Shown: positions 2,247-59,043, numbered from the stretch's first letter. The stretch: DNA of 64,000 nucleotides from Nitrospirota bacterium (GCA_963790025.1 CAWBMP010000004.1:64001-128000); one strand, 5' to 3'. Notes: generated by a model from the sequence alone, not told the origin. Numbers and translations are program-made.

Positions 2247-2313
2247 GACAGTGTCTGTGTCAGTGTCGGTGTCGGTTCATAGATTCCGTTATTGACACTA
2301 ACACTGTCACTGA
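2247..2313. repeat. Hexamer tandem-repeat inverted element
   Basis: CAGTGT CTGTGT CAGTGT CGGTGT arm, spacer, then GACACT AACACT GTCACT complementary arm. Confidence 0.75.
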
Positions 2314-2335
2314 AACTTCGCTTTGGTTATAATAA

Positions 2336-2887
2336 ATGATGGATGTTATCGGTTTAATTGAAAAATATTACTCTCACGATTCGGAGGCCTATTTTCTCCT
2401 GGTCCACCATAGCAGACTTGTAGCGGAAAAAGCCCTTCAGGTGGCTGCACGGATTTCAATGCCCGTTCCTGATTTAACCTTTATCGAGGAAGCCGCCATG
2501 CTCCACGATATCGGCATTTTCATGACCGATGAGCCGCTTATAGGCTGTTACGGAACTCACCCCTACATAGCCCATGGCTGCCTGGGAAGAGATTTGCTGG
2601 AGAAGGAGGGCTTGCCGGCCCACGCTCTGGTGTGCGAAAGGCACGTCGGCACCGGATTGACATCCGCCGACATAGCGGAAGGCAACCTCCCCATTCCTAG
2701 AAGATCGATGAAGCCTGTGACACTGGAAGAACAAATTATCTGTTTCGCCGACAAATTCTATTCAAAAAAGAAAGACAGGCTCATGCACGAAAAACCTGTG
2801 GCTGAAATCCGAAAAGGTTTGGCCCGATACGGCAAAAGCAAACTGCAGCAATTCGATGAATGGCTGGTCCTGTTTAAAGAGAAGTAA
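2336..2887 (+). CDS. HD-domain phosphohydrolase (HDIG type)
   Basis: HHS...AMLHDIG...H...ERHVG...ICFADK motifs. Confidence 0.85.
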   Translation: MMDVIGLIEKYYSHDSEAYFLLVHHSRLVAEKALQVAARISMPVPDLTFIEEAAMLHDIGIFMTDEPLIGCYGTHPYIAHGCLGRDLLEKEGLPAHALVCERHVGTGLTSADIAEGNLPIPRRSMKPVTLEEQIICFADKFYSKKKDRLMHEKPVAEIRKGLARYGKSKLQQFDEWLVLFKEK

Positions 2888-2972
2888 AAAGTGAAAAGGT
2901 AAAAAAATTCAAGCTAAGAATTTAAAAAAGCCTTTCCTTTTGACTTTACTTTTAACTTATTACTTTTAACTT
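2882..2972. repeat. Heptamer tandem-repeat inverted element between convergent genes
   Basis: AAAAGTG/AAAAGGT arm and CTTTTGA/CTTTTAA/CTTATTA arm. Confidence 0.6.
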
Positions 2973-4249: not shown

Positions 4250-4262
4250 AATTCATCTCCTT

Positions 4263-4353
4263 AAAAAGTAAGGTAAAAGTCGAGGCAGAGGTAATGAAAA
4301 AACAACAAAAAAGCTTTGTTTTAATCTATACCTATACCTTTACCTCTGCCTCG
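4263..4353. repeat. Hexamer tandem-repeat inverted element
   Basis: CGAGGCAGAGGTAA (4281-4294) is the perfect complement of TTACCTCTGCCTCG (4340-4353); flanking AAGGTA/TACCTA units. Confidence 0.8.
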
Positions 4354-5005
4354 CTTTTATCGTATTCAGATACTCTTTTGCTGCTGCATTTGTATCACCT
4401 TCACCCAGTATGCCGCTTATTACCGCTATCCCCATGGCGCCTGAGTGCATCACTACCTTTATCGTATCGCGCTTGACCCCGCCGATACCAAAAACCGGAA
4501 TGGCAATTTCTTCCGTAACTTTTTTCAGTGCTTCCAATCCGACCGGCGCACCGTATTGCAATTTTGAAGGGGTCTGGTAAAGCGGACCGAAAGTGATAAA
4601 ATCGGCCCCTTCCTTTTCAGCGAGGCGTGCCTCTTCCAAACTATGAGTGGAAACACCGATGAAAAGGCGGTCACCGGCTATCTTTCTGACTGCAAAGACA
4701 GGCATGGAGGCTTGTCCCAGATGCACGCCGTCAGCACCGGCGCATAGAGCTATATCAGCCCGGTCGTTTATAAAAAATTTTGCATGATAATGCATGGTCA
4801 GTTCTCTCATCCTGTATGCCATTGCAAGTAATTCCCTTGTGGACAAATCCTTCTCCCTTAACTGCACCGCTTCAACACCCGCCTTCAGAGCACCTCCAAG
4901 GGCCCCAAAAAAAGCATCATGGTCAGAGAATACCTTTCTATCAGTAATCAAATAAAGATTGAAATCTACTTTCCGTTCATGCATAAGAGCACCGCAATGC
5001 ATCAC
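4340..5005 (-). CDS. thiE: Thiamine-phosphate synthase
   Basis: LYLITD, VQLREK, INDRADIA, GVHLGQ, GVSTHS, TPSK, GIGG; start may be 4984. Confidence 0.95.
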   Translation of the reverse strand: MMHCGALMHERKVDFNLYLITDRKVFSDHDAFFGALGGALKAGVEAVQLREKDLSTRELLAMAYRMRELTMHYHAKFFINDRADIALCAGADGVHLGQASMPVFAVRKIAGDRLFIGVSTHSLEEARLAEKEGADFITFGPLYQTPSKLQYGAPVGLEALKKVTEEIAIPVFGIGGVKRDTIKVVMHSGAMGIAVISGILGEGDTNAAAKEYLNTIKARQR

Positions 5006-5010
5006 CGGTT

Positions 5011-9885: not shown

Positions 9886-9990
9886 TTATGCGTTATATCC
9901 TACTCCGTTCAGCGCTAAAAAATCAACATCATGAAATCTTTCAATAACTTTTCGTTCTTACGCTGAACGCACAACGCAGTACGCTGTACG
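9886..9990. repeat. Heptamer tandem-repeat inverted element (ACGCNNN family)
   Basis: ACGCTGA ACGCACA ACGCAGT ACGCTGT arm with degenerate GCGTTAT/CCGTTCA/GCG opposite arm. Confidence 0.75.
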
Positions 9991-17138: not shown

Positions 17139-18412
17139 ATTAGCACCAGATCTGCCTTGAGACTTCCGGCAGCCTTGATGGCTTGCAGTATTGCTACAAG
17201 ATCCCTGGGAGTAACGCCCAGGGCATTCAATCCCTTCACAAGCTCTCCGATAGTAGAGCCTTTTACCTGCACTAAATTCGTCTTTTTTTCCTCGACAGTT
17301 ACCTGTTTTTGAGGTATAACGACAGTCTTCGCACCTGCCGGCGCAAAGGGAGGAGGCTGTGAAACCTGATAATCCGTGTTAATTACTATGGTCAGTGAGC
17401 CGTGAGCGAGAGCAACAGGGCTGATCGTAACATTTTCTCCGATAACAACAGTACCGGTCCGCTCATTAATGATCACCCTGGCAGGGGTGTCTATAGTAAC
17501 ATTCAGCATTTCGACAGTTGAGATCAGGTCCACTACTTTATCGGCAAAGGCGTCAGGGACAATCAACGACACCTCTGATGGCCCTTCGGCTTTTGCAAAA
17601 ATACCTCCGAGGTGCTCATTAATTTTATTGGCAACCCTGGTAGCAGTTTCGAAATCCTGCATGTTAAGCAAAAGATCAAGACTGTTCCTCCGGTTTAACT
17701 GCACAGGAACCTCTCTTTCAACTATGGCGCCGTTAGGCACTGTTCCGACATTAGGATGGTTCTTAATCGTCTGTGTGCCGCCGCCCCCAGCCAAAAAACC
17801 TCCGATTGATACTGGTCCCTGTGCCACCGCATAGACATTATCATCAAGTCCCTTGAGAGGGGCTGCCAGAAGCGTCCCTCCCTGCAAACTCGATGAATCC
17901 CCGATCGAAGAGACCTGGACGTCGATTTTTCCGCCGGGCATGATCATCGTGGGAAGCTTCGCCGTAACAATGACCGCAGCAACATTCTTGGTTTTACCTT
18001 TTACATCGCCGGGGTTCACATTAATACCCATCTTGGCAAGCATATTGGCAACGGGCTGATAATAATATGTTCCGTCCCTGTCTCCCGTTCCGTGAAGACC
18101 CACAACAAGACCATATCCGATAAGATCATTCTCCCTCACGCCTGAAAATGCAGCTATGTCCTTTATACGCTCAGCATATGCTTCAGTAGGAAAAAAGCAT
18201 GAAAAACAAATTGTTAATGACAAAAGGCTAAAGGGCAAAGACCGTAATAGAGATAGACTTCTTAATGTTTTCCTGATCGAACCTTTAGCCTTCAGCCATT
18301 CGTCTTTTGCCGATTTATATATGAACATCTGCTTTTTACCACCCTTCATAATGTCTTCCTTTAACCTTTTACCTTTAACTATTTGTTTTACCTTTTTTAT
18401 CAGAACGGCCAA
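17135..18412 (-). CDS. flgI: Flagellar P-ring protein (start uncertain, possibly 18349)
   Basis: RIKDIA...GVRENDLIGYGLVVGL, SLQGGTLL, INERTGTVV, ILQAIKAAG. Confidence 0.95.
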   Translation of the reverse strand: MAVLIKKVKQIVKGKRLKEDIMKGGKKQMFIYKSAKDEWLKAKGSIRKTLRSLSLLRSLPFSLLSLTICFSCFFPTEAYAERIKDIAAFSGVRENDLIGYGLVVGLHGTGDRDGTYYYQPVANMLAKMGINVNPGDVKGKTKNVAAVIVTAKLPTMIMPGGKIDVQVSSIGDSSSLQGGTLLAAPLKGLDDNVYAVAQGPVSIGGFLAGGGGTQTIKNHPNVGTVPNGAIVEREVPVQLNRRNSLDLLLNMQDFETATRVANKINEHLGGIFAKAEGPSEVSLIVPDAFADKVVDLISTVEMLNVTIDTPARVIINERTGTVVIGENVTISPVALAHGSLTIVINTDYQVSQPPPFAPAGAKTVVIPQKQVTVEEKKTNLVQVKGSTIGELVKGLNALGVTPRDLVAILQAIKAAGSLKADLVLM

Positions 18413-19170
18413 ACTTTGTCCATTACGTTTAATAGCCAGCCTTGTGACTGCTTGTTATCAAGCTCGCCTTCACCAACTATGTATATCTTGGCGTCGGCCA
18501 CCTGCTGGGAAGCGATTGTATTAATAGCAGAGATATCCTCCGGCCGTATTATGCCCCGCACAACTATGATCTCCTTATCATTATTTATTATTGTTTCTTT
18601 TCTGGATTCGAGCACCAGGTTCCCGTTAGGAAGCACTTCTATCACCTTCGCGCCAATCGAAGCGGTAATAGTTCCTGTTCTTGCAGTGTCACCCTCCCCT
18701 TTCAAAGAAGTAGTTCCAGATCCCGAAAGACCGGTCTGCAGGTTCTTTACCGGGAATGAATAACCGGCCAGTCCCAAAGCGTTCGTCATGCTGTCGTTAA
18801 CAGAAGATGCGCGGCTGCTGTTCGTTGTCGCCTTATTTTGTGCTGTCGTAGTTTCAGTGATAAGAATGGTAACGATGTCATTAACCCGCCTCGCTCGCTG
18901 GTCTTCATAGAGCGACGCCCTGTCGGCCCAAAGAGAGCCTTCGCCTGTGTATGATTCTTTTTCTTTTGTGTGAACGTATTTTGGAGGCATGGGCTCATCC
19001 TTGATCTCACGCGCCTCCTTCAAACCGGAACAACCAAAAAGCAACAGAAGGCTAAAGGTTAAGGGTATAAGGTGAAAGGGAAAACAAACTTCCCTTCCAT
19101 ATTTCGCCTTTTGTCTTTTCTCTTCTGTTATTAACCTTTTACCTTTCACCATTGACCTTCCACCTTTCAT
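18400..19170 (-). CDS. flgH: Flagellar L-ring lipoprotein
   Basis: Lipobox LLFGC, GSLW, EVLPNGNL, GIIRPEDI, VADAKI, VWPF. Confidence 0.95.
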   Translation of the reverse strand: MKGGRSMVKGKRLITEEKRQKAKYGREVCFPFHLIPLTFSLLLLFGCSGLKEAREIKDEPMPPKYVHTKEKESYTGEGSLWADRASLYEDQRARRVNDIVTILITETTTAQNKATTNSSRASSVNDSMTNALGLAGYSFPVKNLQTGLSGSGTTSLKGEGDTARTGTITASIGAKVIEVLPNGNLVLESRKETIINNDKEIIVVRGIIRPEDISAINTIASQQVADAKIYIVGEGELDNKQSQGWLLNVMDKVWPF

Positions 19171-19991
19171 ATTTTTACTTTTACTGTATCCGCCGAGACA
19201 AGTATTCCGCTGACCTCTTTCTTTTTAGAATCAAGAAGGACCCGTGCCACCCCGCCCACTACGGCATCATGATTCAGCACCCCTCGTGTAGAAATCTGCA
19301 TGCTTGCTCCTTCGACAAGAACTATTACTTCCCGGCCCTTTTTAATGTTCGATGTGTTGATAAAATTGTCAGACCGAAGTATTACGCCCTGCGCAATATT
19401 AGACTTAAGTTTCCTGCCTTTGATCTCACTTATATCAGTTATCGCACCCGACGGCAGTCTTGAATTCTTTTGTTTCACGGTATAGACATCCTCTTCAGTA
19501 ATGATCGTGTTGCTCGATATGGGCTTTGCAGCAACAAAAATATCTGTAAGGACGTCATATGCCGCTTCCACCCGCACTTTGAAAACCATTTGCCTGTCGT
19601 CATAAAGAGACACCAGATAGACGATTTTATTGCGGCCATTATATCCGTCCATTGCTATATTACGAACCGTGTAACTTTTGTCTTCATCCAGAGTGTCAAG
19701 GCCTTTTAGAATTCTTATTCCGTCAAGCTCAACGTTTGCAGAGACGGTGCGTACGAGCTCGGTCATAACAGCTTGCTTTATTGTGTCCATAACTTGCGGC
19801 CTGGCAGCAGCCAGAACAACAGCAGGCAGAAAAAAAGTAAGCAGTAAGCAGAAGGCAGTATGCAGAAAAATAGCAGGCCGTAGGGAGTAAGTAGTACGAA
19901 ACAAAGAAGAAAAAGAAGAATCTCGGATTCCCTGCTGCGCGGGAATGACAGTCAAACGTTTTTCAAAACTTTTGACGAGCTCGACCTTCAT
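19167..19991 (-). CDS. flgA: P-ring formation chaperone
   Basis: Signal peptide, SAF-like C-terminal half, position between flgG and flgH. Confidence 0.85.
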   Translation of the reverse strand: MKVELVKSFEKRLTVIPAQQGIRDSSFSSLFRTTYSLRPAIFLHTAFCLLLTFFLPAVVLAAARPQVMDTIKQAVMTELVRTVSANVELDGIRILKGLDTLDEDKSYTVRNIAMDGYNGRNKIVYLVSLYDDRQMVFKVRVEAAYDVLTDIFVAAKPISSNTIITEEDVYTVKQKNSRLPSGAITDISEIKGRKLKSNIAQGVILRSDNFINTSNIKKGREVIVLVEGASMQISTRGVLNHDAVVGGVARVLLDSKKKEVSGILVSADTVKVKI

Positions 19992-20076
19992 CGGTTATTC
20001 TCCTTTTTCCCTGCTTCTTACTGTCTCTTGCCTTCTGCTTACGGCTCACTACTTACCGGCTTCTGCTTATTTTTTT

Positions 20077-20865: not shown

Positions 20866-20885
20866 AAAACCTCCAATTTAGTCTA

Positions 20886-20983
20886 ACGGCAAAAGGGTAA
20901 AGGCCAAAGGAAACAGATAAGAAATAAACATCAAAAATCTTCCACTTCTTCCGCCTTTAGCCATCAGCCCTTTGCCCTTTGCG
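20886..20983. repeat. Heptamer tandem-repeat inverted element
   Basis: AAAGGGT AAAGGCC AAAGG arm and GCCTTTA GCCATCA GCCCTTT GCCCTTT arm. Confidence 0.75.
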
Positions 20984-22238: not shown

Positions 22239-23079
22239 CTACAGCAAATTAGTTCTTTGCTCCGCATGACAGTGCTTCAGCCTTTCCTGCAATGAGTTAA
22301 ACTGTGTTGTCGTCAGCCCAAGCTGCTCAAAGCCAATTTGGCTAAAATCTATTGCAGTACGCATCCCTATTCCCATGTGCAGACACATCGCATCGGCTAC
22401 CTGAACAATCTGGCACATAGTCTCGTAGCCGCTGTCTTGAAAGGCAGGATACTGTTCAGCATGATGGTATTCAATTACCGCCTCAAGGTTCCGCGGCAGC
22501 TTCCACTTCCTGGCAATAAGCGCCCCGACATTGCAGTGATTGAATCCCAAAATTTCATCCTCGGCAACAATAGAGTTAAGTTTCTCCTGATCAACCTTTT
22601 TTATAACAGCTTTGTATTGCTCAGGCAGACTATTGTTGATAACGATCTTTCCCATATCATGTATGAGACCGCCGATCAGCGCCTCTTCCGGTATCAGCAT
22701 CCCGGTCTCAGCCGCCAGGAGTGCCGCCGCAATAGACACACCGAGGCTGTGCTCCCAATGCTGCTGCTCGAATAGTCCGAATTTCCTGTGGAGAATCTTT
22801 TAGTGAGGCAGCCGCCACCAGAGACTTCATTGAACTAAAGCCGATAAGAATTATAGCCGTGGAAATAGTATCAATCCCCCTGCCGCGGCCGTAATATGGC
22901 GAATTGGCTATTCTCAAGAGACGGGTCGAAAACGATTCATCCTGGGAGATAATCTCTTCCAGCTGATTGATGGAAGTAAAATCACTGCTGACAAGCTGAA
23001 GAACTTTTGATGCCACAGGAGGCAGACTCGGGACATCGACGGTTTCAAGAATAATCTTTTCCAGCACGTCTTCTTTCAT
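22239..23079 (-). pseudogene. HDOD-domain protein split by a +1 frameshift near 22795
   Basis: N-half LPPVASKVL...LLRIANSPYY; C-half GLIHDMGK...HCNVG...WKLP...YHH; removing one T restores KDLHRKFGLFEQQHWEHSLGV. Confidence 0.85.
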
Positions 23080-24187: not shown

Positions 24188-25366
24188 CTAGAATCCAAAA
24201 TCTTTCAGCAGATCGTCGACGTCCTCTTGTGAAACTTTTTCCGGGGCTGCAATATCCGCTTTCAGACCCGTCTCAGATTTGGAGCCGAACGTCGTTACAA
24301 GTTTTACCAGCTCTTCTTCGATATCTCCGACAAGTTTTATGACCTTCTTTATAGTCTGCCCTGTAAGGTCCTGGAAAGACTGGGTCGTAAGAATTTCGGT
24401 CAAATCATCCTCAAACCCTGACTTGAATGTCTTGAGATACTGGACAGATTCTTCAGGCCCCTGCAGATTTCGTATATGTGAAGCCAGTTCATCCATGGTC
24501 AATATATGTTTTTCGACTATCCCCATGGTCCGGTTCGCAGCATCTTCCGTCTTCTCGATAACAAACTGCAACTGGTCAACTGCATTAGGCATCTCGGTGG
24601 CCGCCATATCTTTGAGTTTCGGATTAAGCGTTTCCTTAAAGCTTCGTATAGTATCATGGAGCTTGCGCGTTACCTTGCCGACCTCCCGGAAGAGATCATT
24701 CTGTCCTTTCTTCATTATGCTCTGGGCAGCGATGTCGGCTTTCTCAAAGTCCTCGCCTGCAATCGCATTCATGAAGCCGACCATGTCATCAAAAAGAGCA
24801 TAACGAGGATCTGAGGGGGCCACCCCCTGCCGCGAAAAGAAATTTTTAGCTTCGAGCACTTCTTTGACCAGCGTTTCTCCTCCTATCCCCTCAACCTTCT
24901 TAATCACCTCGACCTGATCACCTGTTTCCTTCACTTCATAAATTTCATCTTCAAACATGCTCATGTCTTCGAGAGGGATCAGCTTCCTTGTATCCAGCAG
25001 TACGAGCAATTTCTCGCCGACCTTTGCAACTCCTGACACGATCTCGGAGGTGTTAAAGTCTGTGGGCGGCTCTATCGATGAATCCTCTATCGTAATTACA
25101 CCCGTTATTTCATCAATAAGCACTCCGAAAGTAATCCGGCCGGTTGTTACGACAATGACTTTCTCTCCTATGGAATCTCCTCCGAAGCCGGCAAGTTTTT
25201 TTAGATTGACGATGGGAATAATCCTTCCCCTGAGGTTTGTGATCCCCTCTATATAATGAGGTACCTGCGGCAGTTTGGTCAGGCGCGGCAGATTAACAAT
25301 CTCCTGAACCTTCAGAATAGGAATGGTGTATTCATTATTATTCATGGTAAAACCTATATACTGCAT
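24188..25366 (-). CDS. CheW-CheZ fusion protein
   Basis: N-terminal CheW (VQEI...GITNLRGRIIPIVNL); C-terminal CheZ (TEDAANRTM, QSFQDLTGQ, SQEDVDDLLKDFGF). Confidence 0.9.
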   Translation of the reverse strand: MQYIGFTMNNNEYTIPILKVQEIVNLPRLTKLPQVPHYIEGITNLRGRIIPIVNLKKLAGFGGDSIGEKVIVVTTGRITFGVLIDEITGVITIEDSSIEPPTDFNTSEIVSGVAKVGEKLLVLLDTRKLIPLEDMSMFEDEIYEVKETGDQVEVIKKVEGIGGETLVKEVLEAKNFFSRQGVAPSDPRYALFDDMVGFMNAIAGEDFEKADIAAQSIMKKGQNDLFREVGKVTRKLHDTIRSFKETLNPKLKDMAATEMPNAVDQLQFVIEKTEDAANRTMGIVEKHILTMDELASHIRNLQGPEESVQYLKTFKSGFEDDLTEILTTQSFQDLTGQTIKKVIKLVGDIEEELVKLVTTFGSKSETGLKADIAAPEKVSQEDVDDLLKDFGF

Positions 25367-25383: not shown

Positions 25384-25458
25384 CGTCTACAGCGTACTGC
25401 GTTAAAAACCTAAAACCAGTCTTTAAAACACAGAACGCCGAACGCAGTACTCATACCG
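25384..25458. repeat. Heptamer tandem-repeat inverted element
   Basis: AGCGTACTGCGTT arm and GAACGCC GAACGCA GTACTC arm. Confidence 0.7.
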
Positions 25459-28062: not shown

Positions 28063-28231
28063 CAAAGGCAGACAAAGATTAAGGCAGAGGTAAAGACAAA
28101 CGAAAAGCAAAGTGAAAAAACCCCATCTCTTAATTCCACGCGCCTTTCTATCTTCATCTTACCTTCATCATTTTGTTCTTGCCTTTATTTTTCTCTACCG
28201 CTGCCTCTGCCCTTACCTTTACCTCTGCCTT
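28063..28231. repeat. Hexamer tandem-repeat inverted element
   Basis: AAGGCAGAGGTAAAG arm and CCTTACCTTTACCTCTGCCTT arm. Confidence 0.75.
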
Positions 28232-28236
28232 TCTTT

Positions 28237-31745: not shown

Positions 31746-31825
31746 AGCAGGCAAAGGTAAAGGTAAAGGTAAAGAAAAGACTAAAGACATTAAATAAGAA
31801 AAACTCTACCTTTACCTTTGCCTCC
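31746..31825. repeat. Hexamer tandem-repeat inverted element
   Basis: GCAAAG GTAAAG GTAAAG GTAAAG arm and CTCTAC CTTTAC CTTTGC arm. Confidence 0.8.
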
Positions 31826-33688: not shown

Positions 33689-33740
33689 AGTATCCCCCTT
33701 AAAAAAGCGTACGGCGTTCCGGGCACAGCGCTGCACGCCT

Positions 33741-35786
33741 TTATTCCAGCTTCAGCGTTCCAATAGAAAATACTTGCGTACTAGGCGTAATCTCGCCCTG
33801 TGATACGATCATGATACTGCCTGATATCCGTTCAGCCAGTTTCTTCAGAAACCTCCTGATCGTAGGCGAACATAGCACGACCGGTTGATATCCCTTACGG
33901 ACCCCGTCCTCATAATTTTTTTTCAAGTTCTCGCTGATCTTATCAGATGTCACCGGATCAAGGGCCAGATATGAGCCCTGCGGTGTGCTCTGAACAGCTT
34001 CTATTATCTGCCGCTCAACTTTAGGGTCCACTACAATGACGGATATTGACCCATCGGTCCCCTGCAATTGTTTTGTAATGTTACGGGCCAGCGCTTGCCT
34101 GACATACTCTGTCAGTACTTCCGGGTCCTTGGTGACCGCAGCATAATCCGAAAGAGTTTCAAGTATAGTTTGAAGGTCTCTAATAGAAATTCTTTCTCTC
34201 AACAGGTTTTGCAGCACTTTCTGCACTGCGCTTAAGCCAAGAAGGGCGGGGATGAGGTCCTCCACCACTTTGGGGTGTGTTTTAATCAGATTATCAAGCA
34301 GCTTCTGTACATCCTGTTTGCCTAATAATTCATTTGAATAATTCTTTATTACTTCGGTCAGGTGTGTCGCCATCACTGACGGCACATCAACAACCGTATA
34401 GCCGAGCAGTTGGGCTTCCTCCCTGTTTTTTTCATCAATCCAAACTGCATTTAAGCCAAAAGCAGGGTCTTTTCCCGGTATGCCTTCAATCTTTGACGTT
34501 TCGGTACCTGGCGCAATAGCAAGGTATTTATTAAGCATTACATCTGCGGTAGAAACCCCAACTCCTTTTATAAGAATCGAATAAGAATGCGGCTTCAATG
34601 ATAAATTATCTTTTATATGGACCGGTGGAACAATATAGCCCATGTCCGTGACCATTTGTCTTCTGATCGCCTTTATTCTGCTCAGAAGAGTGCCGCCTTC
34701 CTCCACAAGCGGTATCAACCCGTAGCCAATGTCCAGCGATAGAGGATCAATGGGGAGCAATGATTCGAGTGTCTCGGGAGGTTTTACCTCCTCCACTGCC
34801 GGGGCTTCCACAGCTTCCTTCAGCGTGAGTTTCTGTTTTATAAAGTACGCCGTTGTCCCGGTTATGGTTGCGAGAATAATAAAAGGTAAATGAGGCAGCC
34901 CCGGAATCAGTCCGAAAAAACCCAGTATACCGGCTGTGGTACCAAGCACCTTGGGGTTCGCAAAAAGCTGATTAACCACATCGGTGCCGAGGTTCGCCTC
35001 CGCAGCCGCCCTTGTGACAATAATACCGGCGGCGGTTGAGGTGACCAGTGCAGGGATCTGTGCCACCAATCCTTCTCCTATTGTCAGTATGGTGTAAGTC
35101 TGCGCGGCTTCCGCCATAGGCATGCCCTTCTGAATGACCCCTATCATAAATCCGCCAATAATGTTGATTACCATGATAATGATAGCGGCAATGGCATCTC
35201 CCCTCACAAATTTGCTGGCGCCGTCCATAGATCCGTAGAAATCAGCCGCCCTGCTTATTTCCTGCCTTCTCTTCCGCGCTTCTCTTTCATCTATAAGACC
35301 TGCATTCAGGTCCGCATCGATACTCATTTGCTTGCCCGGCATTGCATCGAGGGTAAACCGGGCCGAAACTTCGGCAATCCTGCCTGCGCCCTTCGTAATA
35401 ACAACAAAATTTATTATTATCAAAATAAAAAAGATGACGAAGCCCACCACAAAATTACCGCCGACTACAAATGCCCCGAAAGATTTAATTACCATTCCGG
35501 CGGCCTCGATACCGGTATCGCCCTTCGTGAGAATAAGCCGCGTGGAGGCGATGTTCAAAGCGAGTCTCAGCAGCGTCGCTACAAGCAAAATGGAAGGGAA
35601 GACGGAAAAATCAAGGGGCTTTTCAGTATAAGCCGCCACAAGCAGCACAACAATAGACAGCGTAATGCTGAAAGATAAAAAGAGATCAAGCAGAAGGGCC
35701 GGCACTGGAATGATCATCAATCCGAGGACCAGCACTATGCCGAATGCCAATAAAATGTCGCTCTGTCTTAACAGCCTTTCAAGCAT
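33741..35786 (-). CDS. flhA: Flagellar export gate protein
   Basis: RFTLDAMPGKQMSIDADL, FYGSMDGASKFVRGDA. Confidence 0.98.
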   Translation of the reverse strand: MLERLLRQSDILLAFGIVLVLGLMIIPVPALLLDLFLSFSITLSIVVLLVAAYTEKPLDFSVFPSILLVATLLRLALNIASTRLILTKGDTGIEAAGMVIKSFGAFVVGGNFVVGFVIFFILIIINFVVITKGAGRIAEVSARFTLDAMPGKQMSIDADLNAGLIDEREARKRRQEISRAADFYGSMDGASKFVRGDAIAAIIIMVINIIGGFMIGVIQKGMPMAEAAQTYTILTIGEGLVAQIPALVTSTAAGIIVTRAAAEANLGTDVVNQLFANPKVLGTTAGILGFFGLIPGLPHLPFIILATITGTTAYFIKQKLTLKEAVEAPAVEEVKPPETLESLLPIDPLSLDIGYGLIPLVEEGGTLLSRIKAIRRQMVTDMGYIVPPVHIKDNLSLKPHSYSILIKGVGVSTADVMLNKYLAIAPGTETSKIEGIPGKDPAFGLNAVWIDEKNREEAQLLGYTVVDVPSVMATHLTEVIKNYSNELLGKQDVQKLLDNLIKTHPKVVEDLIPALLGLSAVQKVLQNLLRERISIRDLQTILETLSDYAAVTKDPEVLTEYVRQALARNITKQLQGTDGSISVIVVDPKVERQIIEAVQSTPQGSYLALDPVTSDKISENLKKNYEDGVRKGYQPVVLCSPTIRRFLKKLAERISGSIMIVSQGEITPSTQVFSIGTLKLE

Positions 35787-36953: not shown

Positions 36954-37004
36954 AAAAAAAGCAGGCAAAGGTAAGGGCAGAGGCCTGCTTTTACCTTTGC
37001 CTGC
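36954..37004 (-). terminator. Hexamer-family hairpin with T7 tail between fliR and flhB
   Basis: Perfect 14-bp stem GCAGGCAAAGGTAA / TTACCTTTGCCTGC followed by T7 on the minus strand. Confidence 0.55.
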
Positions 37005-37743: not shown

Positions 37744-37817
37744 AATTAAAGCTTTAATTTAACTTCTTTCAACTTCCTCTTTTTCTTTGCCTTCATCTTC
37801 ATCTTTATCTTTACCTG

Positions 37818-38087: not shown

Positions 38088-38866
38088 CTGAATCCCCCGA
38101 TAAGAGAACCGATCAGGAGCTGCCATCCATCGACCATGACAAAAAGCAGCAACTTAAAGGGCATGGAAACCATGACAGGGGGCAGCATCATCATACCCAT
38201 CGAGAGCAGTACGCTTGCAACAACCATATCAATAACCAGAAAGGGAAGAAAAATAAGGAACCCTATCTCGAATGCCTTTTTAAGCTCTCCGATGGCAAAG
38301 GCAGGAATCACCACCCGCATAGGCAAATCCATCGGTTTTGCAGGTCTCTCCGATTTAGACATCTTCAGAAAGAAAGCAAGCTCCTTCTCTTTAGTCTGTC
38401 TAAGCATGAACTCCTTCAGAGGGCCCCCTGCCCTGTTAATGGCATCTTCGACCCCAATCTCTTTTTTTGAATATGGTTGATACGCTTCCGAGTAAATCCG
38501 GTCGATGACCGGTGACATGATGAAAAATGTAATAAAGAGGGCCAACCCCAGGATTACTTGCGTCGGCGGCACCGAAGGAGTGCCGAGCGCCTGCCTCAAA
38601 AAAGAAAGCACTACAACAATTCTGGTGAATGAGGTGACCATGACAAGAATTGCAGGCAATATGGACAAAAGGGTCAGGAACAGGAGCAACTCAAGGGGCG
38701 TCGACAGGCCAAAAAGTCCGGCACCAGCAGGAGGGGCAGCTGTCGCCGGTGTCTGGGCTAAAACAAAAGAAGGCAACAAAAGGCAATAGGCGATAGGCAA
38801 TAGGCTATAGGTCAAAAACGAAAGACCTTTTCTGTTCTGTTTTTTTATCGTTGACCTATTGCCCAT
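38084..38866 (-). CDS. fliP: Flagellar export protein
   Basis: TSFTRIVVVL, MGMMMLPP, KLLLFVMVDGW. Confidence 0.97.
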   Translation of the reverse strand: MGNRSTIKKQNRKGLSFLTYSLLPIAYCLLLPSFVLAQTPATAAPPAGAGLFGLSTPLELLLFLTLLSILPAILVMVTSFTRIVVVLSFLRQALGTPSVPPTQVILGLALFITFFIMSPVIDRIYSEAYQPYSKKEIGVEDAINRAGGPLKEFMLRQTKEKELAFFLKMSKSERPAKPMDLPMRVVIPAFAIGELKKAFEIGFLIFLPFLVIDMVVASVLLSMGMMMLPPVMVSMPFKLLLFVMVDGWQLLIGSLIGGFR

Positions 38867-38869
38867 AGC

Positions 38870-39217
38870 CTATTGCCTATCGCCACCTTGCTTTGTCCCT
38901 AGCCATTTAAGTCTGCTTTTTTGAATTTCGCTGTACGCTTTGGGCCCATCGTCATTTGCTTTTCGCAATTCTTCAATTTCTTCACGATTCAGTTTGCTCA
39001 GGAGCGAGATGCTCTCGTCGGCTATACCCACTGCAATGTAATCATTCACTATTTTAATAATGGCTATGCCTCTCTTGGGTCCTAACGACTGATAATGGAG
39101 CATCTCGATCATCCCCTTTTGCGGCAGCATTTTTTGCTTCATAAACCTGAGCAGCAGATATACCGCAGCAAGGGTCAACAGTAAAGCTGCAGAAACTTTA
39201 ATAATTTCGAAACCCAA
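38870..39217 (-). CDS. fliO: Flagellar export chaperone
   Basis: One TM helix, LGPKRGIAII, position between fliN and fliP. Confidence 0.85.
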   Translation of the reverse strand: MGFEIIKVSAALLLTLAAVYLLLRFMKQKMLPQKGMIEMLHYQSLGPKRGIAIIKIVNDYIAVGIADESISLLSKLNREEIEELRKANDDGPKAYSEIQKSRLKWLGTKQGGDRQ

Positions 39218-39252
39218 GAAAACCTCCTATACCTCTACCTTTACCTGTTTTT

Positions 39253-41320: not shown

Positions 41321-41434
41321 GCTAAAACTATGCCAGGATATAACTATTTGATTTTATGAAAGTATTAATAAGGAAGGTCAAAAAAATGACGGAATAGAAG
41401 CCATTAGAGGCTCCCTAACCGTCAATAAATTAGC
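41321..41434 (-). promoter_or_regulatory. Sigma54 promoter of fliL operon with IHF site and FleQ-type boxes
   Basis: TGGCAT-AGTTT-TAGC (41321-41335); IHF AATCAA-ATAG-TTA (41341-41353); GTCAAAAAAATGAC (41377-41390); GTCAATAAATTAGC (41421-41434). Confidence 0.75.
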
Positions 41435-41492
41435 TCATAGCTCATAGAAAAGCACTTTCTGCCTTTGCTATGAGTTATGAGCTATCAGCTAA
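41430..41492. repeat. Heptamer tandem-repeat inverted element
   Basis: TAGCTCA TAGCTCA TAG arm and CTATGAG TTATGAG CTATCAG CTA arm. Confidence 0.8.
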
Positions 41493-44715: not shown

Positions 44716-46383
44716 TTACGCAAAGAAGTCGAAGAAACCTGTTTTTTGTTCCTTTTGCTGTCTTTGCTGCCGCTGGTTTGTATCGTCCTGTTGTCTTCTT
44801 CCATCCTTAAAGCTGTCTTCTTTCAAATCTGTAAAAAAATTCCCGGTCTTTATGCCCGAACTTTCGATTGACTGCTTGATTTGAGGCATTACGGTAGTGA
44901 ACATGTCTTTTACCGCAGTAGAGTCAACCTTGATGTCCGCTGTCAAAATGCCGTTTTCCATTTTGAGTTTTATCTGTATTGTGCCCATATCGGGAGGCGA
45001 AAGTTTTATTGTCAGATTACTGTCTCCGGAAGCCAGCGTTTTCATTATGGGTTCGCTCAATTCGCCCAACCTGCTGACGGGAATGGCTTCCTGTGCCGGT
45101 TTCGCATCATTGGCATACTGGGTCTGCTGTGCCGGGACAGCAGCGCAGAGCGCAGAGTGTTCAGCGTTCAGCGACGTCGAGTCAGTGTTGCTGTTCGGGT
45201 TTTTTTGCGTTATAGCGCTCAGAACTGTAACCTCTACGCCATTTGCGCCAAGAGTTGCTGAGTTCATTGCATTCGTAGCCGGATTACCTGCATTATTGGT
45301 TGCGTTAAGATTTCCAGCGTTTATTTCATTCGATGTTGGATTGCCGGCATTATTGGCTGTCTTTAGAGTTGCAGCGCTTATTGAATTCGTCGCTTGATTG
45401 CCGGCGTTATTGGCTGCGTTAAGAGTTGCAGCGCTTATTGAATTCGTCGCTTGATTGCCGGCGTTATTGGCTGCGTTAAGAGTTGCAGCGCCTATTGCAC
45501 CTGTCGTTGGATTGCCGGCGTTATTGGCTGCGTTAAGAGTTGCAGCGCCTATTGCACCTGTCGTTGGATTGCCGGCGTTATTGGCTGCGTTAAGAGTTGC
45601 AGCGCCTATTGCACCCGTCGTTGGATTGCCGGCGTTATTGGCCGCGTTAAGAGTTGCAGCGCCTATTGCACCTGTCGTTGGATTGCCGGCGTTATCAGGC
45701 AAGTTTTGTTGCGCCATAACGGTCAACGCGGTATTATCAACAATAGCGTCAGGCGTTAGATTACCAGTATAGCCGGCAACGCTAGTAGTCAAGTTTTGTT
45801 GCGCCGCTGAGCCCTTAACGTTTTCGCCGCCATTGGCAGCAGGCACGGCACTTTTTTGAAGTGCCTGCTCCAACACCGCAATCAGAGAGGTCGTACCATT
45901 GCCTGTGCCATTGCTGCCGGCTATGCCGGTAGCGGCAATTGAGGTATCAGAGGAAGCAGCATTTAAGGACTGACCCGGCGCAATTAAAATATAAGGCTGG
46001 GCAACCGATGTCTGCAGCTGACCTATCATCTGCTGAAGCAGGTCCGTCATGCTGTTTCTGGAATCTGTTTTTTTGTCTGGACCTGTCTTATTGTCGGTCC
46101 CGTTGTTGATAAAAAGTCCTTGCATTAATTCAGCGAGTGAAACTGTTTTGCCGTCGGCGTTTATAAAAGTGCCGTTCTGAAGATTGCCTGTCCCTTTGTC
46201 AAGACCGGAACTTATTGCCCGTAAAAGGCCCGCAAAGTCTGCGGTCGGGTCTCCATTTCCGCCAGCGCCTTGAGTAACACTGCTTGTAGTCATGCCTGAC
46301 ACCGGGGTCACCGAAGAATCGGATATTCGTTGGGGTACGGCAGGCATGATTTCATTAACTTTAGCTATGATATTATCGACCAT
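44716..46383 (-). CDS. fliK: Hook-length control protein
   Basis: C-terminal [13 protein letters not shown] domain; low-complexity N-part; start MVDNII downstream of a sigma54 promoter. Confidence 0.9.
45249..45695 (-). repeat. In-frame 57-bp tandem repeat (about 8 units) in fliK
   Basis: Encodes [19 protein letters not shown] x4, [15 protein letters not shown] x2, plus 2 degenerate units. Confidence 0.95.
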
Positions 46384-46569: not shown

Positions 46570-47073
46570 TTACTTCGGGGCTTTGGGGATTTTGGTAATA
46601 ATCTTTTTTGAAATGGAAGCCGCCTTGTCACTGTCCATCTGGGCAAGAATTCCACCGGCAGTCCTCGGCTTCAGTGAGCTGAGAATAGCCGCGGCAGTGT
46701 CCTCGTCAAGTTTTTCGAGTGCTTTTGCAGCTTCTTCAGGGGGCATCGCCTCGTATATCTTGCTTACCTTCAGCAGACGCTGTTTTGCGGCTTCATCCAA
46801 ACCTTTTTGCGCCTCTTCAATATCTTTTTTCAGCTTCTCGTTGTATTCTATTTCCTTTTTTATATCAGACTTTATGATACCAAGCCGTTCCTTATCGAGT
46901 GACCCCTGGTCCTGCCCGTAAGCGGGCGTAAGCAGTAAGCAGTAAGCAGTAAGCAGTAAAACAGTAAATAAAGAAAAAAAAGAACCCAGAGCTTCAAAAG
47001 AATGGATTCCCGCCCGTGCGGGTATAACAATCAAGTGCTTTTTAAGACTTTTTACGAGCTGGTCAGACTTCAT
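46570..47073 (-). CDS. MotE-family (MgtE N-terminal-like) flagellar protein
   Basis: Signal peptide, coiled coil, KIYEAMPPEEAA...LKPRTAGGILAQMDSDKAA; after fliJ. Confidence 0.85.
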   Translation of the reverse strand: MKSDQLVKSLKKHLIVIPARAGIHSFEALGSFFSLFTVLLLTAYCLLLTPAYGQDQGSLDKERLGIIKSDIKKEIEYNEKLKKDIEEAQKGLDEAAKQRLLKVSKIYEAMPPEEAAKALEKLDEDTAAAILSSLKPRTAGGILAQMDSDKAASISKKIITKIPKAPK

Positions 47074-47143
47074 TGTTTATCTCCTTACCACTCACTTCTT
47101 ACCCTTTTTGCTAAATCCTATTTTCTTTTTTACTGCTTACTCC

Positions 47144-47584: not shown

Positions 47585-47710
47585 ATAGCGTACTGCGTAC
47601 GGAGTTCAGCGTGCCGCGTAAAAAAAATCGCAGACTTTCTGTTAGTCACTTCTCTATTCATGTCCGTTATAGTCCTTTAACGCTGTACGCTGAACGCACA
47701 ACGGCGAACG
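47585..47710. repeat. Heptamer tandem-repeat inverted element
   Basis: AGCGTAC TGCGTAC GGAGTTC AGCGTGC arm and ACGCTGT ACGCTGA ACGCACA ACG arm. Confidence 0.8.
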
Positions 47711-52283: not shown

Positions 52284-52357
52284 CGTGCTGCTTACAGCGC
52301 ACTGCGTTCCAAAGTCCGTTTCGGGGGCTTTTCACGCAGTGCGCTGTAAGCAACACG
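52284..52357. repeat. Heptamer-family inverted element with 19-bp perfect stem
   Basis: TGCTTACAGCGCACTGCGT (52289-52307) / ACGCAGTGCGCTGTAAGCA (52334-52352). Confidence 0.85.
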
Positions 52358-53088: not shown

Positions 53089-53164
53089 CGTTCAGCGTGC
53101 GGCGAACAGCTTACTGCGTCAAAAGCCTCTAAAGCGGACCTTGGAACGCTGTAAGCAGTACGCG
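53089..53164. repeat. Heptamer tandem-repeat inverted element
   Basis: CGTTCAGCGTGCGGCGAACAGCTTACTGCGT arm and AACGCTGTAAGCAGTACGCG arm. Confidence 0.7.
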
Positions 53165-56246: not shown

Positions 56247-56333
56247 CAGGCATAGGCATAGGTTAAGATTGAGAATAAAATTTTTTTCTTCACTTTATTC
56301 TTTTACTCCACCTTTACCTTTTCCTTTACCTCT
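56247..56333. repeat. Hexamer tandem-repeat inverted element
   Basis: AGGCAT AGGCAT AGGTTA arm and CCACCT TTACCT TTTCCT TTACCT arm. Confidence 0.7.
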
Positions 56334-56337
56334 CTTT

Positions 56338-58035
56338 TTATTCACCTTTAATTAATAATTTGGCAGCTTCTCCCACTGCCCCGCCGCCATTAGCGGCCTT
56401 TTTCAGATACTCTTTGTCATTGGTCATTTTGCCGTACTGGTAGTAAGCCCACTGGCGGCTCTTCTCATCGGGAAGCCCCAGACTCAGGGCCCGTTTATAA
56501 TACACACGTGATTTGGAAAGATTCCCTGAGAGGAATAGCAGATCACCCGCCTTAAGCGCAGCGACCGCATCGCCGTATACGTCAGAAGCCACTTTGTAAT
56601 ATTGCAATGCCCTGGCCTTGTCTCCGGTCTCAAGATATAAATCTGCGATTTTATTGCTGATCCTGGCGCTTTTTGAATATTTGTTTGCCTTTTCCAGATA
56701 ACCGATAGCGCCTTGCAAGTCGCCTTTTTGGCTCAATATGTCAATCATGAGAAACGTCGCCTTTACAAAATATCTGTTGTCCAGCAAAAGAGGGGCCAGA
56801 GTTTTTTCGGCTTCGCTGTATTTACCATCTTTGAAAAGCATTTGGGCCATTAACAGCGCGGCATCTCCTTCCTGAACACCGTGCATCGCCTTATTGAGCA
56901 GTAAATTGCCCTCCAATTTTTTTCCGTTTTCGATCAGGTATTGTGCGGCAGTAAGAATGAAAGGGCTTTCCTGGCTGATCGAAGCCAGGAATTTGAGAAG
57001 GCATTCCGCAGCCTTAGGATCTTTGGCGGCAATAAGCTGCCTCAGTCGCTTTTCAATTTCTGACGACCGTTTTCCCTTGTCCTTCAGCAGACTCGCATAT
57101 CTCAATGCATTTTCTCTATCTCCCTTTTTATCGTAAAGCGAGGCTATGGACATTTTAACGCTGTCGTCTGTTTCGTAAGGCCCTAAATCGAGATACAATT
57201 TCAGAGCATCATCCACCCTTCCCTTACCTTCATACACTTTGGCAAGAATTTTCTGTGCCTTCTGTTTCTCGATCATGGATACAGGGTCTGCAATGATGGA
57301 CTCACACAGTTTCTCTGCCCTATCCATCCGCGAAGCGTTAAAATAAATCAATGCCTTGTCCGCCCTCAAGTCCTCTTCTCTCAATATTACATCGAAAATT
57401 TTATTGATAACGCTCACTGCCTCTTTGTGCATTCCCTTTTTGCTTAATATGACGGCCTGTACATAGAGCGCCCGTGGATTGCGTCCCAGCTCTTTTTTGT
57501 CCATGGCGTTAATGATGGATTCCGCAGCCGCAACATCATCGCGCTTAAGGGCCACCTCTGCTCTTCCTATATCAGCTTTTTGTTTTAAAGGAGCGACTAC
57601 CTGCTCAAAATAATGCTGTGCCTGATCGAATTTTTTGTCATACATTAAGATATAGCCCGTGAGTAAAAAGGCCTCGTCCACATACTCAGACTGAGGGAAG
57701 GCCAGTAAAAAGCGCTGCAGATTCAGACGCGCTTCAGAATAGCGCTTCAGTTTGTAATCAGTTCTCACCATGCCCCACAATGCACGTTCGGAAAACGGGC
57801 CCCTCCTGTTGTTAATAAAAACTCCCCGATAAATCTCTTCCGCCTTATTGTAGTGTCTGGTCTTATAAAAGTAGTCTGCTGATTTCAGCGGATCTTCGGC
57901 AGCAAATGAGCGAATGGGTAAAAAGGTAAATGAGCAGATGAGTAAAAGTGTAAATGAAAGGTCAATTATCTGACATAGAGTCATTAGCAATCTCTTGCAA
58001 GTGTTATTTTTATGACAGTTTATCCATTCTCTCAT
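56338..58035 (-). CDS. Exported TPR-repeat protein
   Basis: Signal peptide ending SFA, multiple TPR helices (FLLAFPQSEYVDEA). Confidence 0.85.
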   Translation of the reverse strand: MREWINCHKNNTCKRLLMTLCQIIDLSFTLLLICSFTFLPIRSFAAEDPLKSADYFYKTRHYNKAEEIYRGVFINNRRGPFSERALWGMVRTDYKLKRYSEARLNLQRFLLAFPQSEYVDEAFLLTGYILMYDKKFDQAQHYFEQVVAPLKQKADIGRAEVALKRDDVAAAESIINAMDKKELGRNPRALYVQAVILSKKGMHKEAVSVINKIFDVILREEDLRADKALIYFNASRMDRAEKLCESIIADPVSMIEKQKAQKILAKVYEGKGRVDDALKLYLDLGPYETDDSVKMSIASLYDKKGDRENALRYASLLKDKGKRSSEIEKRLRQLIAAKDPKAAECLLKFLASISQESPFILTAAQYLIENGKKLEGNLLLNKAMHGVQEGDAALLMAQMLFKDGKYSEAEKTLAPLLLDNRYFVKATFLMIDILSQKGDLQGAIGYLEKANKYSKSARISNKIADLYLETGDKARALQYYKVASDVYGDAVAALKAGDLLFLSGNLSKSRVYYKRALSLGLPDEKSRQWAYYQYGKMTNDKEYLKKAANGGGAVGEAAKLLIKGE

Positions 58036-58047
58036 ATACGTGTTTAC

Positions 58048-59043
58048 TTATAGATCCAATCGTTTCATTTTCTCGATTAATGTAGTGCGGTTGATATTAA
58101 GATATTTTGCAGCCTGGCTCTTAACCCCTTTATATAGCTCCAGCGCGTGGAGAATAAGTCTTTTTTCATAACCCACAAGTGCGGCATTAAGGTCTATGCC
58201 GCTCACAAAGGGGTTGCTATCGTCATCCTCAACATCAGGGAATTCCGGTATCCGCTTTCCTGTCATGCTTTCAGGTAAATCGGCAGGCTTCACTACGTCA
58301 TCGTCCTTGAGCACAAGAAGTCGCTCTATGGCGTTTTCAAGCTCCCTGACGTTGCCGGGCCATGAGTAACCGGCTAAAACCTTTGTCGCCTCCTCGGTAA
58401 TTGTTATAGGGTTTCTTCCAAATCTTTGTGAGTATTTATCGATAAAGAAGCTGCAAAGCAGAGGAATATCATCTGTCCGATTCCGAAGAGGAGGTATTTC
58501 TATTGGAATGACATTAAGGCGGTAGAAGAGATCTTCCCTGAAACGTCCGCTTTTAACAGAAGTCTCAAGGTCCTGATTGGTTGCTGCGATTATTCTAACG
58601 TCTACATTGATCGTCCTGGTACCGCCTACCCGTTCAAAGGAACGTTCCTGCAGCACCCTGAGGAGCTTCACCTGCAGTATCTGAGGCATCTCCCCGATTT
58701 CGTCAAGAAGTATCGTTCCCCCATCGGCAAGCTCGAACCTGCCAATCCTGGTCGCGATTGCACTGGTAAATGCACCCTTCTCATGGCCGAACAATTCAGA
58801 TTCAAGCAGATCTCCCGGAATTGCCCCGCAATTTACCGGGATAAACGGCCTGTCCGCCCTGTCGCTATGCAGGTGAATGGACTTGGCAATGAGTTCTTTA
58901 CCGGTACCGCTCTCACCTGAAATAAGAACGGTACTCTGACAGCAAGCCACTTTGGCTGTTAACTCGTAAATACGCTTAATACCGGGGGAATTTCCAACAA
59001 TACTGACGGGACTGACGCTTCCTGAAGAGGTACCGTAACCCAT
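58048..59043 (-). CDS. Sigma54 activator, FleQ/FlrA-like, without N-terminal sensor domain
   Basis: GESGTGKE, VNCGAIP, GAFTSA, GRFELA, WPGNVREL, INRTTLIEKM HTH. Confidence 0.9.
   Translation of the reverse strand: MGYGTSSGSVSPVSIVGNSPGIKRIYELTAKVACCQSTVLISGESGTGKELIAKSIHLHSDRADRPFIPVNCGAIPGDLLESELFGHEKGAFTSAIATRIGRFELADGGTILLDEIGEMPQILQVKLLRVLQERSFERVGGTRTINVDVRIIAATNQDLETSVKSGRFREDLFYRLNVIPIEIPPLRNRTDDIPLLCSFFIDKYSQRFGRNPITITEEATKVLAGYSWPGNVRELENAIERLLVLKDDDVVKPADLPESMTGKRIPEFPDVEDDDSNPFVSGIDLNAALVGYEKRLILHALELYKGVKSQAAKYLNINRTTLIEKMKRLDL

Follow-up and report, generated by a model that had tools for sequence, protein, structure and literature searches.

Hairpins whose two arms are tandem arrays of one short word and of its reverse complement recur through a 64,000-nucleotide stretch of DNA from a Nitrospirota bacterium (GCA_963790025.1, CAWBMP010000004.1:64001-128000; G000:C4:64001-128000 in our numbering), hereinafter the window, which includes about 50 kb of flagellar and chemotaxis genes in a source genome of 3.45 Mb and 47% G+C. 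The closest described counterparts of these elements come from several separate lines of work. The intervening sequences (IVSs) of 23S rRNA in Coxiella, Leptospira, and Salmonella share with the present elements a long terminal stem, tandem heptamers (in Coxiella), a sporadic presence among relatives and rRNA operons, and an optional open reading frame (ORF) for a four-helix-bundle protein; in Coxiella the terminal stem is cut by RNase III, and the number of heptamers varies between strains (PMC4990558). Unlike those IVSs, most copies in the present genome lie outside rRNA, between protein genes or in signal-peptide coding sequence, and they fall into about 12 word families. The paired GGGAATC arrays of Xanthomonas (Rehm et al., 2015; PMC4692102) are likewise tandem heptamers in convergent arrangement with the G-rich array first; they too are over-represented in intergenic regions, lie near stop and start codons, and vary in copy number between relatives. 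Tandem units of 6–9 nt in two convergent arrays are common to both, but in Xanthomonas and Nostoc one word dominates each genome, whereas many words occur here, and the available portions of that paper draw no link to rRNA IVSs, PF05635, or signal peptides. In the P6b helix of the Nostoc tRNA-Leu(UAA) intron a hairpin is again formed by two complementary 7-nt motifs, and, at that one site, repeated and independent replacements have exchanged one word class for another; it is, however, a single site within a group I intron rather than a genome-wide set, and it carries no cargo (PMC4476775). The TAACTGA repeats of Beggiatoaceae resemble the present elements as abundant intergenic heptamers near gene starts with a patchy phylogeny, but consist of a single word in arrays that are nearly all direct and unpaired (1 inverted set of 170); long simple sequence repeats (Mrazek, 2007) are summarized in the same paper (MacGregor, 2015; PMC4679880). 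The relationship between Avd and PF05635, the family that supplies the optional ORF here, is also in print (PMC10053308). A first-pass annotation of the window had called its elements a candidate undescribed system, which is right only in part: the rRNA IVSs and the inverted heptamer pairs are each on record, but full-text searches, which did not cover subscription journals, found no paper joining IVSs, heptamer hairpins, and PF05635.

MITEs (miniature inverted-repeat transposable elements), repetitive extragenic palindromic (REP) sequences and their REPIN doublets, and Rickettsia palindromic elements are also small, non-autonomous, hairpin-forming, and dispersed; some are translated within host proteins, and the Rickettsia elements insert in frame into genes. 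The present elements differ from all of these in their tandem arms and changing words; no transposase-bearing parent was found, PF05635 being the only cargo, and no target-site duplication was evident by eye.

On the evidence set out below, we consider it probable that the window hairpins are cargo-less members of one class of tandem-word hairpins, to which the 23S rRNA inserts and the arms around the PF05635 genes of the same genome also belong. They look like fast-turning-over selfish DNA and not like a conserved operon control system.

Tandem-word hairpins in the window and genome-wide

The first-pass annotation had reported about 28 inverted short-tandem-repeat elements in the window, for which it gave 25 coordinates, and this observation was confirmed in part. 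The described design, an array of a 6–8-nt word followed by a spacer and a reverse-complement array, can be read directly at 25 places, and Tandem Repeats Finder returned 6-, 7-, or 8-nt arrays at most of the listed sites. With 100 dinucleotide shuffles of each segment as the control, periodic arms were borne out at 19 of the 25 sites (score reached by at most 2 shuffles; 21 sites at a limit of 5), and complementary arms at 14 (inverted-repeat score reached by at most 5 shuffles); one of these 14, at 37770, scores through a small AT palindrome and not through its arm. Fold-energy z-scores were −2.5 or lower at 14 of the 25 sites.

The same design extends far beyond chance through the genome. 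Arrays of period 6, 7, and 8 number 291, 183, and 67, against 70, 8, and 11 in a Markov-3 simulated genome, and for 187 of the 555 arrays a reverse-complement partner lies no more than 300 nt away, against 5 in a reversed-sequence control and 33 in a complement control; within 2,500 nt the figure is 184, against 10 for the reversed control. Merging gave 149 arm pairs, with period 7 in 85, period 6 in 43, and period 8 in 17, of which 127 have a spacer below 300 nt; these 127 hairpins have a median stem of 31 nt, loop of 34 nt, and total length of 99 nt. The claim that the G-containing arm comes first holds for 120 of them, with 5 in the opposite order and 2 ties. As this order reads identically on both strands, it carries no information on gene direction, and it is passed automatically to any copy.

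About 12 word families recur, namely RAGGYA, GGTTRA, ATAGGCN, AAAAGTN, GCAGTAR, and AAAGGCN, and further GAGGTTR, GCGTNNN, AATGRGTR, CACAGAGR, CAGTGT, and TAGCTCA. The earlier view that the architecture is kept while the unit is not, in contrast to a single REP or MITE family, needs correction: the words are not free to differ at each site. In the AAAAGTN family the non-repetitive loops are homologous at no fewer than 7 unlinked loci with unrelated flanks, and a nested ATTCCC-N8-GGGAAT hairpin is common to six GCAGTAR loops. Shared loops at unlinked loci together with recurrent words point to several dispersed families.

A small nested hairpin, GGATTCCCGC-N4-GCGGGAAT, was seen in the GCAGTAA loops at window positions 19870-20030 and 46960-47110; loops with the nested hairpin occur elsewhere at C2:665606, C2:722422, C4:925264, and C5:127878. 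Identical hairpins at C2:711157 and C4:1569986 were rejected as a case of recent transposition, as they lie within duplicated rRNA operons. Arm pairs 300–2500 nt apart were likewise rejected as additional cargo carriers: they proved to be arms of adjacent hairpins around ordinary genes or tRNAs, the only cargo among them being two PF05635 cassettes. A rough screen of the 80 flhA loci by array density failed to separate taxa.

Hairpins of the same design in 23S rRNA

Both 23S genes of the genome measure 3029 nt, against 2925 positions in the Rfam model, and each carries 109 nt where RF02541 has 6, in a hairpin loop near model position ~283. These 109 nt form a hairpin of GGTTRA words, CAGG(TTRAGG)n...CCTG, the same words as in intergenic copies. 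Among the relatives, G006 and G002 have GGTTRA hexamers at this site; in G004, copy a has AGTRAAT heptamers and copy b has GAAGKTGN octamers, the latter also present in G003; G007 has a decayed copy and G001 only 14 nt. Over seven genomes of the genus the insert ranges from 14 to 145 nt and takes four word types.

As judged from sequence, the 23S insert behaves in the classical manner of an rRNA IVS. In both rRNA copies it extends the tip of a conserved 23S helix, while the window elements lie in mRNA; its termini are complementary over a long stem, as are those of the 127 hairpins, in which 3295 of 3881 aligned arm positions are Watson-Crick pairs; and its presence among relatives and operons is sporadic. 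The optional S23p/PF05635 ORF is represented by two genes of this genome and by 25 of 28 loci in relatives, with none in the window. The insert site itself is presumably not a classical one, which we take to be helices 9, 25, and 45. As a separate observation, the two rRNA copies of G004 (L139 and L144) differ at this site both in their words and in their lower stems.

Hairpin arms around PF05635 genes

The genome encodes two PF05635 (rRNA-IVS/Avd-like, four-helix-bundle) proteins, with scores of 122.7 and 121.7 bits; one of the genes lies at C2:647880-648194. Each gene sits between, and is co-oriented with, genes of a minus-strand sugar-nucleotide operon, and is flanked by inverted arrays, CAGGTTAAGG...CCTTAACCTG in one case and CAGGTAAAGGTAGAGG...CCTTTACCTTTGCCTG in the other (GGTTAA and AGGTAA arms). 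The cassette arms end in CAGG...CCTG, and the window has empty hairpins of the same word families. Of the 31 genomes of an order-level sample, 22 have PF05635, and at 25 of 28 loci in relatives it is surrounded by inverted tandem-word arms that beat all 50 shuffles, with periods of 6–9 and many different words. At these 28 loci the gene shares the orientation of both neighbors in 17 cases, opposes both in 1, and has a mixed or unclear arrangement in 10.

Within the genus, a cassette may be present or missing at an exact junction. In G009 the corresponding junctions measure 4 nt and have no hairpin; in G004, G002, G001, and G006 they hold empty hairpins of various words, and the arms of the empty hairpin at the second junction in G006 are homologous to those of our genome's own cassette. 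The second cassette is present in G003, and homologues of the first are found at other loci in G002, G003, and G006. In empty hairpins, the loops contained no recognizable PF05635 remnant (of 10 scored candidates, 2 matched; the cassette junctions were inspected by eye).

One of the first-pass proposals was that the window hairpins are empty docking sites for small gene cassettes. The link to cassettes is supported: such arms do enclose the two PF05635 genes and 25 of 28 of those in relatives; at the window junctions, however, comparison of the orthologous regions revealed no cargo gene in any relative, the longest spacer being 160 nt over 109 junction-by-genome instances. The comparison leaves two candidate roles for the hairpins, either docking sites or what remains after cargo loss. 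Regarding an integron, recombinase families were absent among the 63 window ORFs, with no match to transposase or integrase families at E ≤ 1e-5, in agreement with the earlier statement that the window encodes no recombinase; intI was not searched in the remaining genome.

Turnover at orthologous junctions

For comparison within the genus, the fliL-to-fliA stretch was recovered from nine further genomes (G005 being the source of locus L001 and G004 that of locus L003). Across them the window junctions are patchily filled or empty, and the words differ. At fliL>fliM, which holds an AGGTAN hairpin in our genome (40604..40700; z −3.4, 28/35 positions paired) within a spacer of 108 nt, G007 and G008 have a homologous element and G004 an element of GCAAAGR words, and G001, G005, and G009 have just 18–25 nt. 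The flhB>flhA junction carries a GCGTNCT hairpin in our genome (35798..35859; 15/16 paired). The words there are GGTNATR in G004 and G006; in G002 and G008 they are ATAGGCN, the G008 element being a 27-nt perfect palindrome; only 9–12 nt are left in G005 and G007, and 16 nt replace the element in a metagenome relative (short contigs with one usable junction). Turnover is similar at fliR>flhB, where an AGGCAA/AGGTAA hairpin (36961..37004; z −3.7, 18/20 paired) is followed by a T-run and a Shine-Dalgarno (SD) sequence, and at fliQ>fliR, where our genome has a single decayed hexamer arm (37768..37816) and G004 and G008 a full hairpin. The AGGTAA hairpin at flhG>fliA (31749..31823; z −3.9, 19/20 paired) is absent or different in the recovered relatives.

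Some empty sites retain a word-like stub, such as GCGTGC at flhB>flhA in G005 and the shared AAACGCGT at fliM>fliN, which could be a footprint or a seed. Separately, the flhA>flhF junction, 4 nt long in the window, is a 160-nt spacer in G006 (L117/L127) with a GTCATTCCCGCG-type motif resembling the nested hairpin of the GCAGTAA loops.

Arm composition and the 5′ ends of exported proteins

The first arm is purine-rich and the second pyrimidine-rich, and the two differ when translated. The density of stop triplets is 9.0 per 100 nt for first arms, 2.9 for second arms, and 5.0 for the intergenic background; stops are more frequent in the first arm in 96 elements and in the second in 13. All three frames are closed in 44 of 127 first arms and open in 64 of 127 second arms. 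Translation yields K (20%), R (11%), and stops (10%) from first arms, and L (23%), F (15%), and P (8.5%) from second arms.

The elements had been said to punctuate gene junctions, as many do, but several lie within the 5′ coding ends of exported proteins. In the window the order is element, SD sequence, and ATG before genes for cytoplasmic or inner-membrane proteins (fliM, flhB, flhA, fliA, and cheY), whereas for Sec-exported proteins the element lies within the 5′ coding end, and its arms encode the signal peptides of FlgA, FlgH, FlgI, FliP, and a TPR protein, as judged by eye from the n-region, h-region, and A-x-A or lipobox motifs. The flgH gene starts in an ATGA overlap with flgA, and an AAAGGNN hairpin lies entirely within its 5′ coding end (19054..19167): the arms translate as MKGGRSMVKGKR... 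and ...IPLTFSLLLLFGC, one supplying a K/R/G-rich head and the other a hydrophobic core that ends in the lipobox LLLFGC. In fliO/fliP an ATAGGCN-heptamer hairpin (38777..38884; z −8.8, 29/34 paired) terminates FliO with a TAG stop in its first arm and supplies the FliP core LTYSLLPIAYCLLL from its second. The 5′ ends of flgI and flgA are built in the same way. The AAAGGNN-heptamer hairpin at flgH>flgI (18210..18382) encodes part of the FlgI signal peptide in its second arm in the mRNA sense; at flgG>flgA the second arm of a GCAGTAA-heptamer hairpin (19836..20069; z −4.9) encodes the FlgA signal core, and its long loop contains the nested ATTCCC-N8-GGGAAT hairpin, an SD sequence, and an ATG. The TPR protein gene at 58035 follows suit, with an AATGAGYR-octamer element at its 5′ end (57906..58035) whose arm is translated as LSFTLLLICSFTFLPIRSFA before AEDP.

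The relatives repeat this with other words. Among FlgA proteins of eight genomes of the genus, six have signal peptides on arms of differing words, and in G004 the entire hairpin is in frame. Genome-wide, among 101 cases, an SD-preceded start with a frame open across the second arm was seen 12 times in frame and 3 and 5 times in the two shifted frames; of the 12 in-frame examples, at least 8 resemble signal peptides or lipoproteins by eye. For annotation, this means that the starts of genes for exported proteins lie within repeats, that ORF callers run genes through the open second arm, and, if the elements are what they look like, that such operon spacers would not be conserved regulatory RNA.

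Another GCAGTAA hairpin, after fliJ (46921..47141), has a loop resembling that at 19836, and its SD sequence and ATG are read through the second arm into a gene for an MgtE_N-domain protein. The two window loops share ~60 nt with a strong SD sequence, an ATG, and a conserved peptide, MK..LVKS..K.L.VIPA..GI, which continues into flgA and the MgtE_N-domain gene, respectively.

Origin and maintenance of the elements

The elements would be selfish or near-neutral DNA spreading by some copying step, with the complementarity and periodicity of the arms kept up at the DNA level by replication slippage and template switching within the palindrome. They lie at places where a compact stem-loop is largely harmless, namely just past stop codons, ahead of ribosome-binding sites, at the tip of an rRNA helix, and in signal-peptide coding sequence. 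By analogy with the rRNA IVSs, which RNase III excises without re-ligation, transcribed stems of ~31 bp would probably be cut by RNase III, for which the genome has one gene, and cutting of the polycistronic flagellar mRNA would then be a by-product and not a conserved control.

A different explanation, and the one offered by the first-pass annotation as an alternative to docking, takes the elements for selected intercistronic stem-loops that process, stabilize, or partly terminate the flagellar transcripts and so set subunit stoichiometry. Their placement after a stop codon and ahead of the following ribosome-binding site suits it, as do the 83 of 127 hairpins between co-directional genes, the T-rich tails after 22 of 127 stems (against 9% in the background), and the low fold energies at 14 of the 25 window sites. 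Long-selected RNA helices usually show a marked excess of G·U pairs on the sense strand. Here, strand-neutral scoring of the arm alignments gave 3295 Watson-Crick positions, 159 of G:T type, 141 of A:C type, and 286 others, and in the 83 co-directional elements sense G·U-compatible mismatches numbered 101 against 102 in the antisense direction (p = 1), with a split by element of 31 versus 30. Neither these counts nor the conservation of junctions lends support to selected mRNA hairpins; a given junction may lack an element in some species of the genus and hold unrelated words in others. Moreover, divergent genes flank 33 of 127 hairpins, a share proportionate to intergenic length (224 kb co-directional, 102 kb divergent, and 69 kb convergent), and the same elements occur in rRNA and within coding regions. 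Nor do they have the design of intrinsic terminators, a short G+C-rich stem with a small loop and a U-run, given their median stem of 31 nt and loop of 34 nt. We accordingly regard selected RNA as an unlikely explanation.

It also seems improbable that the elements never moved and arose in place, by slippage from a seed after a stop codon followed by template-switch 'correction', the families then reflecting convergent word preferences. Same-word seeds or footprints at empty sites (the GCGTGC and AAACGCGT stubs), the occurrence of single arms, and the strand symmetry of the mismatches would all fit such an origin, and so would the 23S insert of G004 copy a, which retains the lower rRNA stem and has new words. 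It is opposed by the loops homologous between unlinked loci, including the nested hairpin common to six GCAGTAA loops, by the occupation of one junction by three unrelated word families, and by entire PF05635 cassettes, which are either present or missing at exact junctions and have homologues elsewhere in the genomes of relatives.

Mobilization of REP/REPIN-type elements by Y1 (REP-associated tyrosine transposase [RAYT] or IS200-like) enzymes is very unlikely. The genome does have 11 Y1_Tnp matches, one pair of which lies ~400 nt from a TAGCTCA hairpin, but 9 of these 11 genes are flanked by 23–31-nt inverted repeats of their own that are non-tandem and unrelated to the words, and none lies within a word hairpin; a RAYT gene flanked by the dispersed repeat was not found. 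The Y1 matches include C5:249351-250331, C4:1215123-1216097, C5:55813-56811, C4:1309146-1310099, C5:305385-306305, C2:671844-672341, and C2:673071-673568, among others, and the flanking repeats (for example, GGGGTCAGG-type) constitute another repeat system with no relation to the word hairpins. Regulatory G-quadruplexes, as proposed for the Xanthomonas and Nostoc heptamers, can be set aside as scarcely credible: the first arm is G-rich in 120 of 127 hairpins and the architecture resembles the inverted GGGAATC pairs (PMC4692102), but in place of one dominant word with a run of three or more G there are about 12 words, most of which do not exceed GG (AGGTAA, GGTTAA) or are free of G-runs (AAAAGTN, GCGTACT, GCAGTAA, CAGTGT), and as most lack GGG, the quadruplex explanation is inapplicable to them.

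Several points weigh against our reading of the elements as mobile, cargo-less members of one hairpin class. No mobilizing enzyme emerged among the candidates tried, RVT_1 and Y1_Tnp: the genome, which is 98.8% complete, has no match to the RVT_1 reverse transcriptase, and most of the Y1 genes have the separate repeats just described. We know of no PF05635 protein that acts as a recombinase or transposase. No target-site duplication was seen by eye between filled and empty junctions or rRNA sites, and a change of word at one site could be turnover in place rather than a new insertion, as in G004 copy a, where the lower rRNA stem is shared with our genome and the words differ. Certain features of placement could reflect function as well, namely the distance from the upstream stop codon to the first arm (median 11 nt; within 20 nt in 53 of 83 co-directional cases) and a depletion in convergent spacers (11 of 127 hairpins, against 17% of intergenic bases); some of the stems with a T-rich tail may attenuate transcription. 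The underlying gene contexts, 83 co-directional, 33 divergent, and 11 convergent, come from crude ORF calls (ORFs of at least 80 aa). Weighed together, the interpretations offered in the first-pass annotation find support in part.

More speculatively, and with doubt prevailing, rRNA IVSs, heptamer hairpins, and the PF05635/Avd-like family might constitute a single class of mobile element, with the PF05635 pentamer as a nucleic-acid-handling factor that does without a resident reverse transcriptase, and with the order of the arms, purine- and stop-rich and then pyrimidine-rich and open, as an adaptation. If true, this arm order would permit harmless landing between the genes of operons, at the tips of rRNA helices, and within signal-peptide coding sequence, and the elements would supply raw material for new export signals. 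Heptamer repeats, fragmented 23S rRNA, and the PF05635 family have each gone unexplained for decades; one genome has all three in a single hairpin design with shared words, and, as the same junction is empty, filled, or cargo-filled across one genus, the copying agent and the role of PF05635 become testable.

Gene context and the remaining elements of the window

The closest named flhA loci are those of Nitrospirota metagenome-assembled genomes, at 87% and 79% amino-acid identity. The 63 window ORFs comprise, by Pfam, nrd, thiC/E/G, pyrD, and greA genes, followed by the ~50-kb flagellar and chemotaxis stretch, in which nearly every gene is on the minus strand.

Outside the flagellar stretch, a CAGTGT-hexamer hairpin separates the divergent nrd and HD-domain genes (2246..2309; z −4.9, periodicity reached by 0/100 shuffles, 19/24 paired). 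The sites at 2882, 4263, 9886, 20886, 25384, 47585, and 57903 are periodic, but by the strict score their complementarity is weak, with 10–26 paired bases each in the arm alignments. They comprise an AAAAGTN-heptamer hairpin where the HD gene and thiC converge (2882..2972; 26/31 paired, with an inverted-repeat score reached by 48/100 shuffles and thus not above them); an AGGTAA/AGGCAG hairpin at thiE>thiC (4263..4350; periodicity 1/100, inverted repeat 14/100, core 11/11 paired); a GCGT-word hairpin upstream of fliW (9886..9990; periodicity 0/100, z −2.7); an AAAGGNN hairpin at flgF>flgG (20885..20979; z −2.9, periodicity 2/100, 20/26 paired); two further GCGT-word hairpins, between cheA and a cheW-cheZ fusion gene (25384..25450; periodicity 1/100, inverted repeat 17/100, core 10/10) and at fliI>fliJ (47585..47695; periodicity 0/100, inverted repeat 11/100, 17/20 paired); and the octamer element of the TPR gene described above.

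At 52284 there is a strong hairpin of GCGT-like words, at fliE>fliF (52284..52357; z −8.5, 23/24 paired), but no periodicity (51/100). Two listed sites did not hold up: that at 33705, within the flhA/flhF coding overlap (33703..33742; periodicity 14/100, inverted repeat 68/100, z +0.7), is unsupported, and that at 53089, at flgB>flgC (53102..53163; 12/100 and 24/100, 15/18 paired), is weak. The single arms reported at 37770 and 39223 were both borne out, the latter an AGGTAN arm at fliN>fliO that runs into the SD sequence (39223..39250; periodicity 0/100, no inverted repeat). Well-paired hairpins were further seen at cheR>cheY (AGGCAG/AGGTAA; 28063..28236; z −3.3, 20/20 paired) and after flgE (TAGCTCA heptamers; 41431..41484; z −5.6, 20/22 paired), the latter being one of a small number in which C outnumbers G in the first arm; an AGGCAT/AGGTAA hairpin lies between the TPR gene and a histidine-kinase gene (56248..56331; z −4.3, 22/31 paired).

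Other repeats of the window are coding and not hairpin elements, namely a tandem repeat of a 57-nt unit (7.3 copies) within fliK at 45281-45695 and hexamer runs (CTCTGC, 15 copies, and AGGTTC) within cheA at 26724-26866. At 22239-23079 the two halves of an HDOD domain (profile positions 1-86 and 103-195) fall on two neighboring ORFs, and this HDOD/HD gene looks split or frameshifted. Next to cheA, at 24188-25366, a CheW domain and a CheZ phosphatase domain are joined in one ORF.

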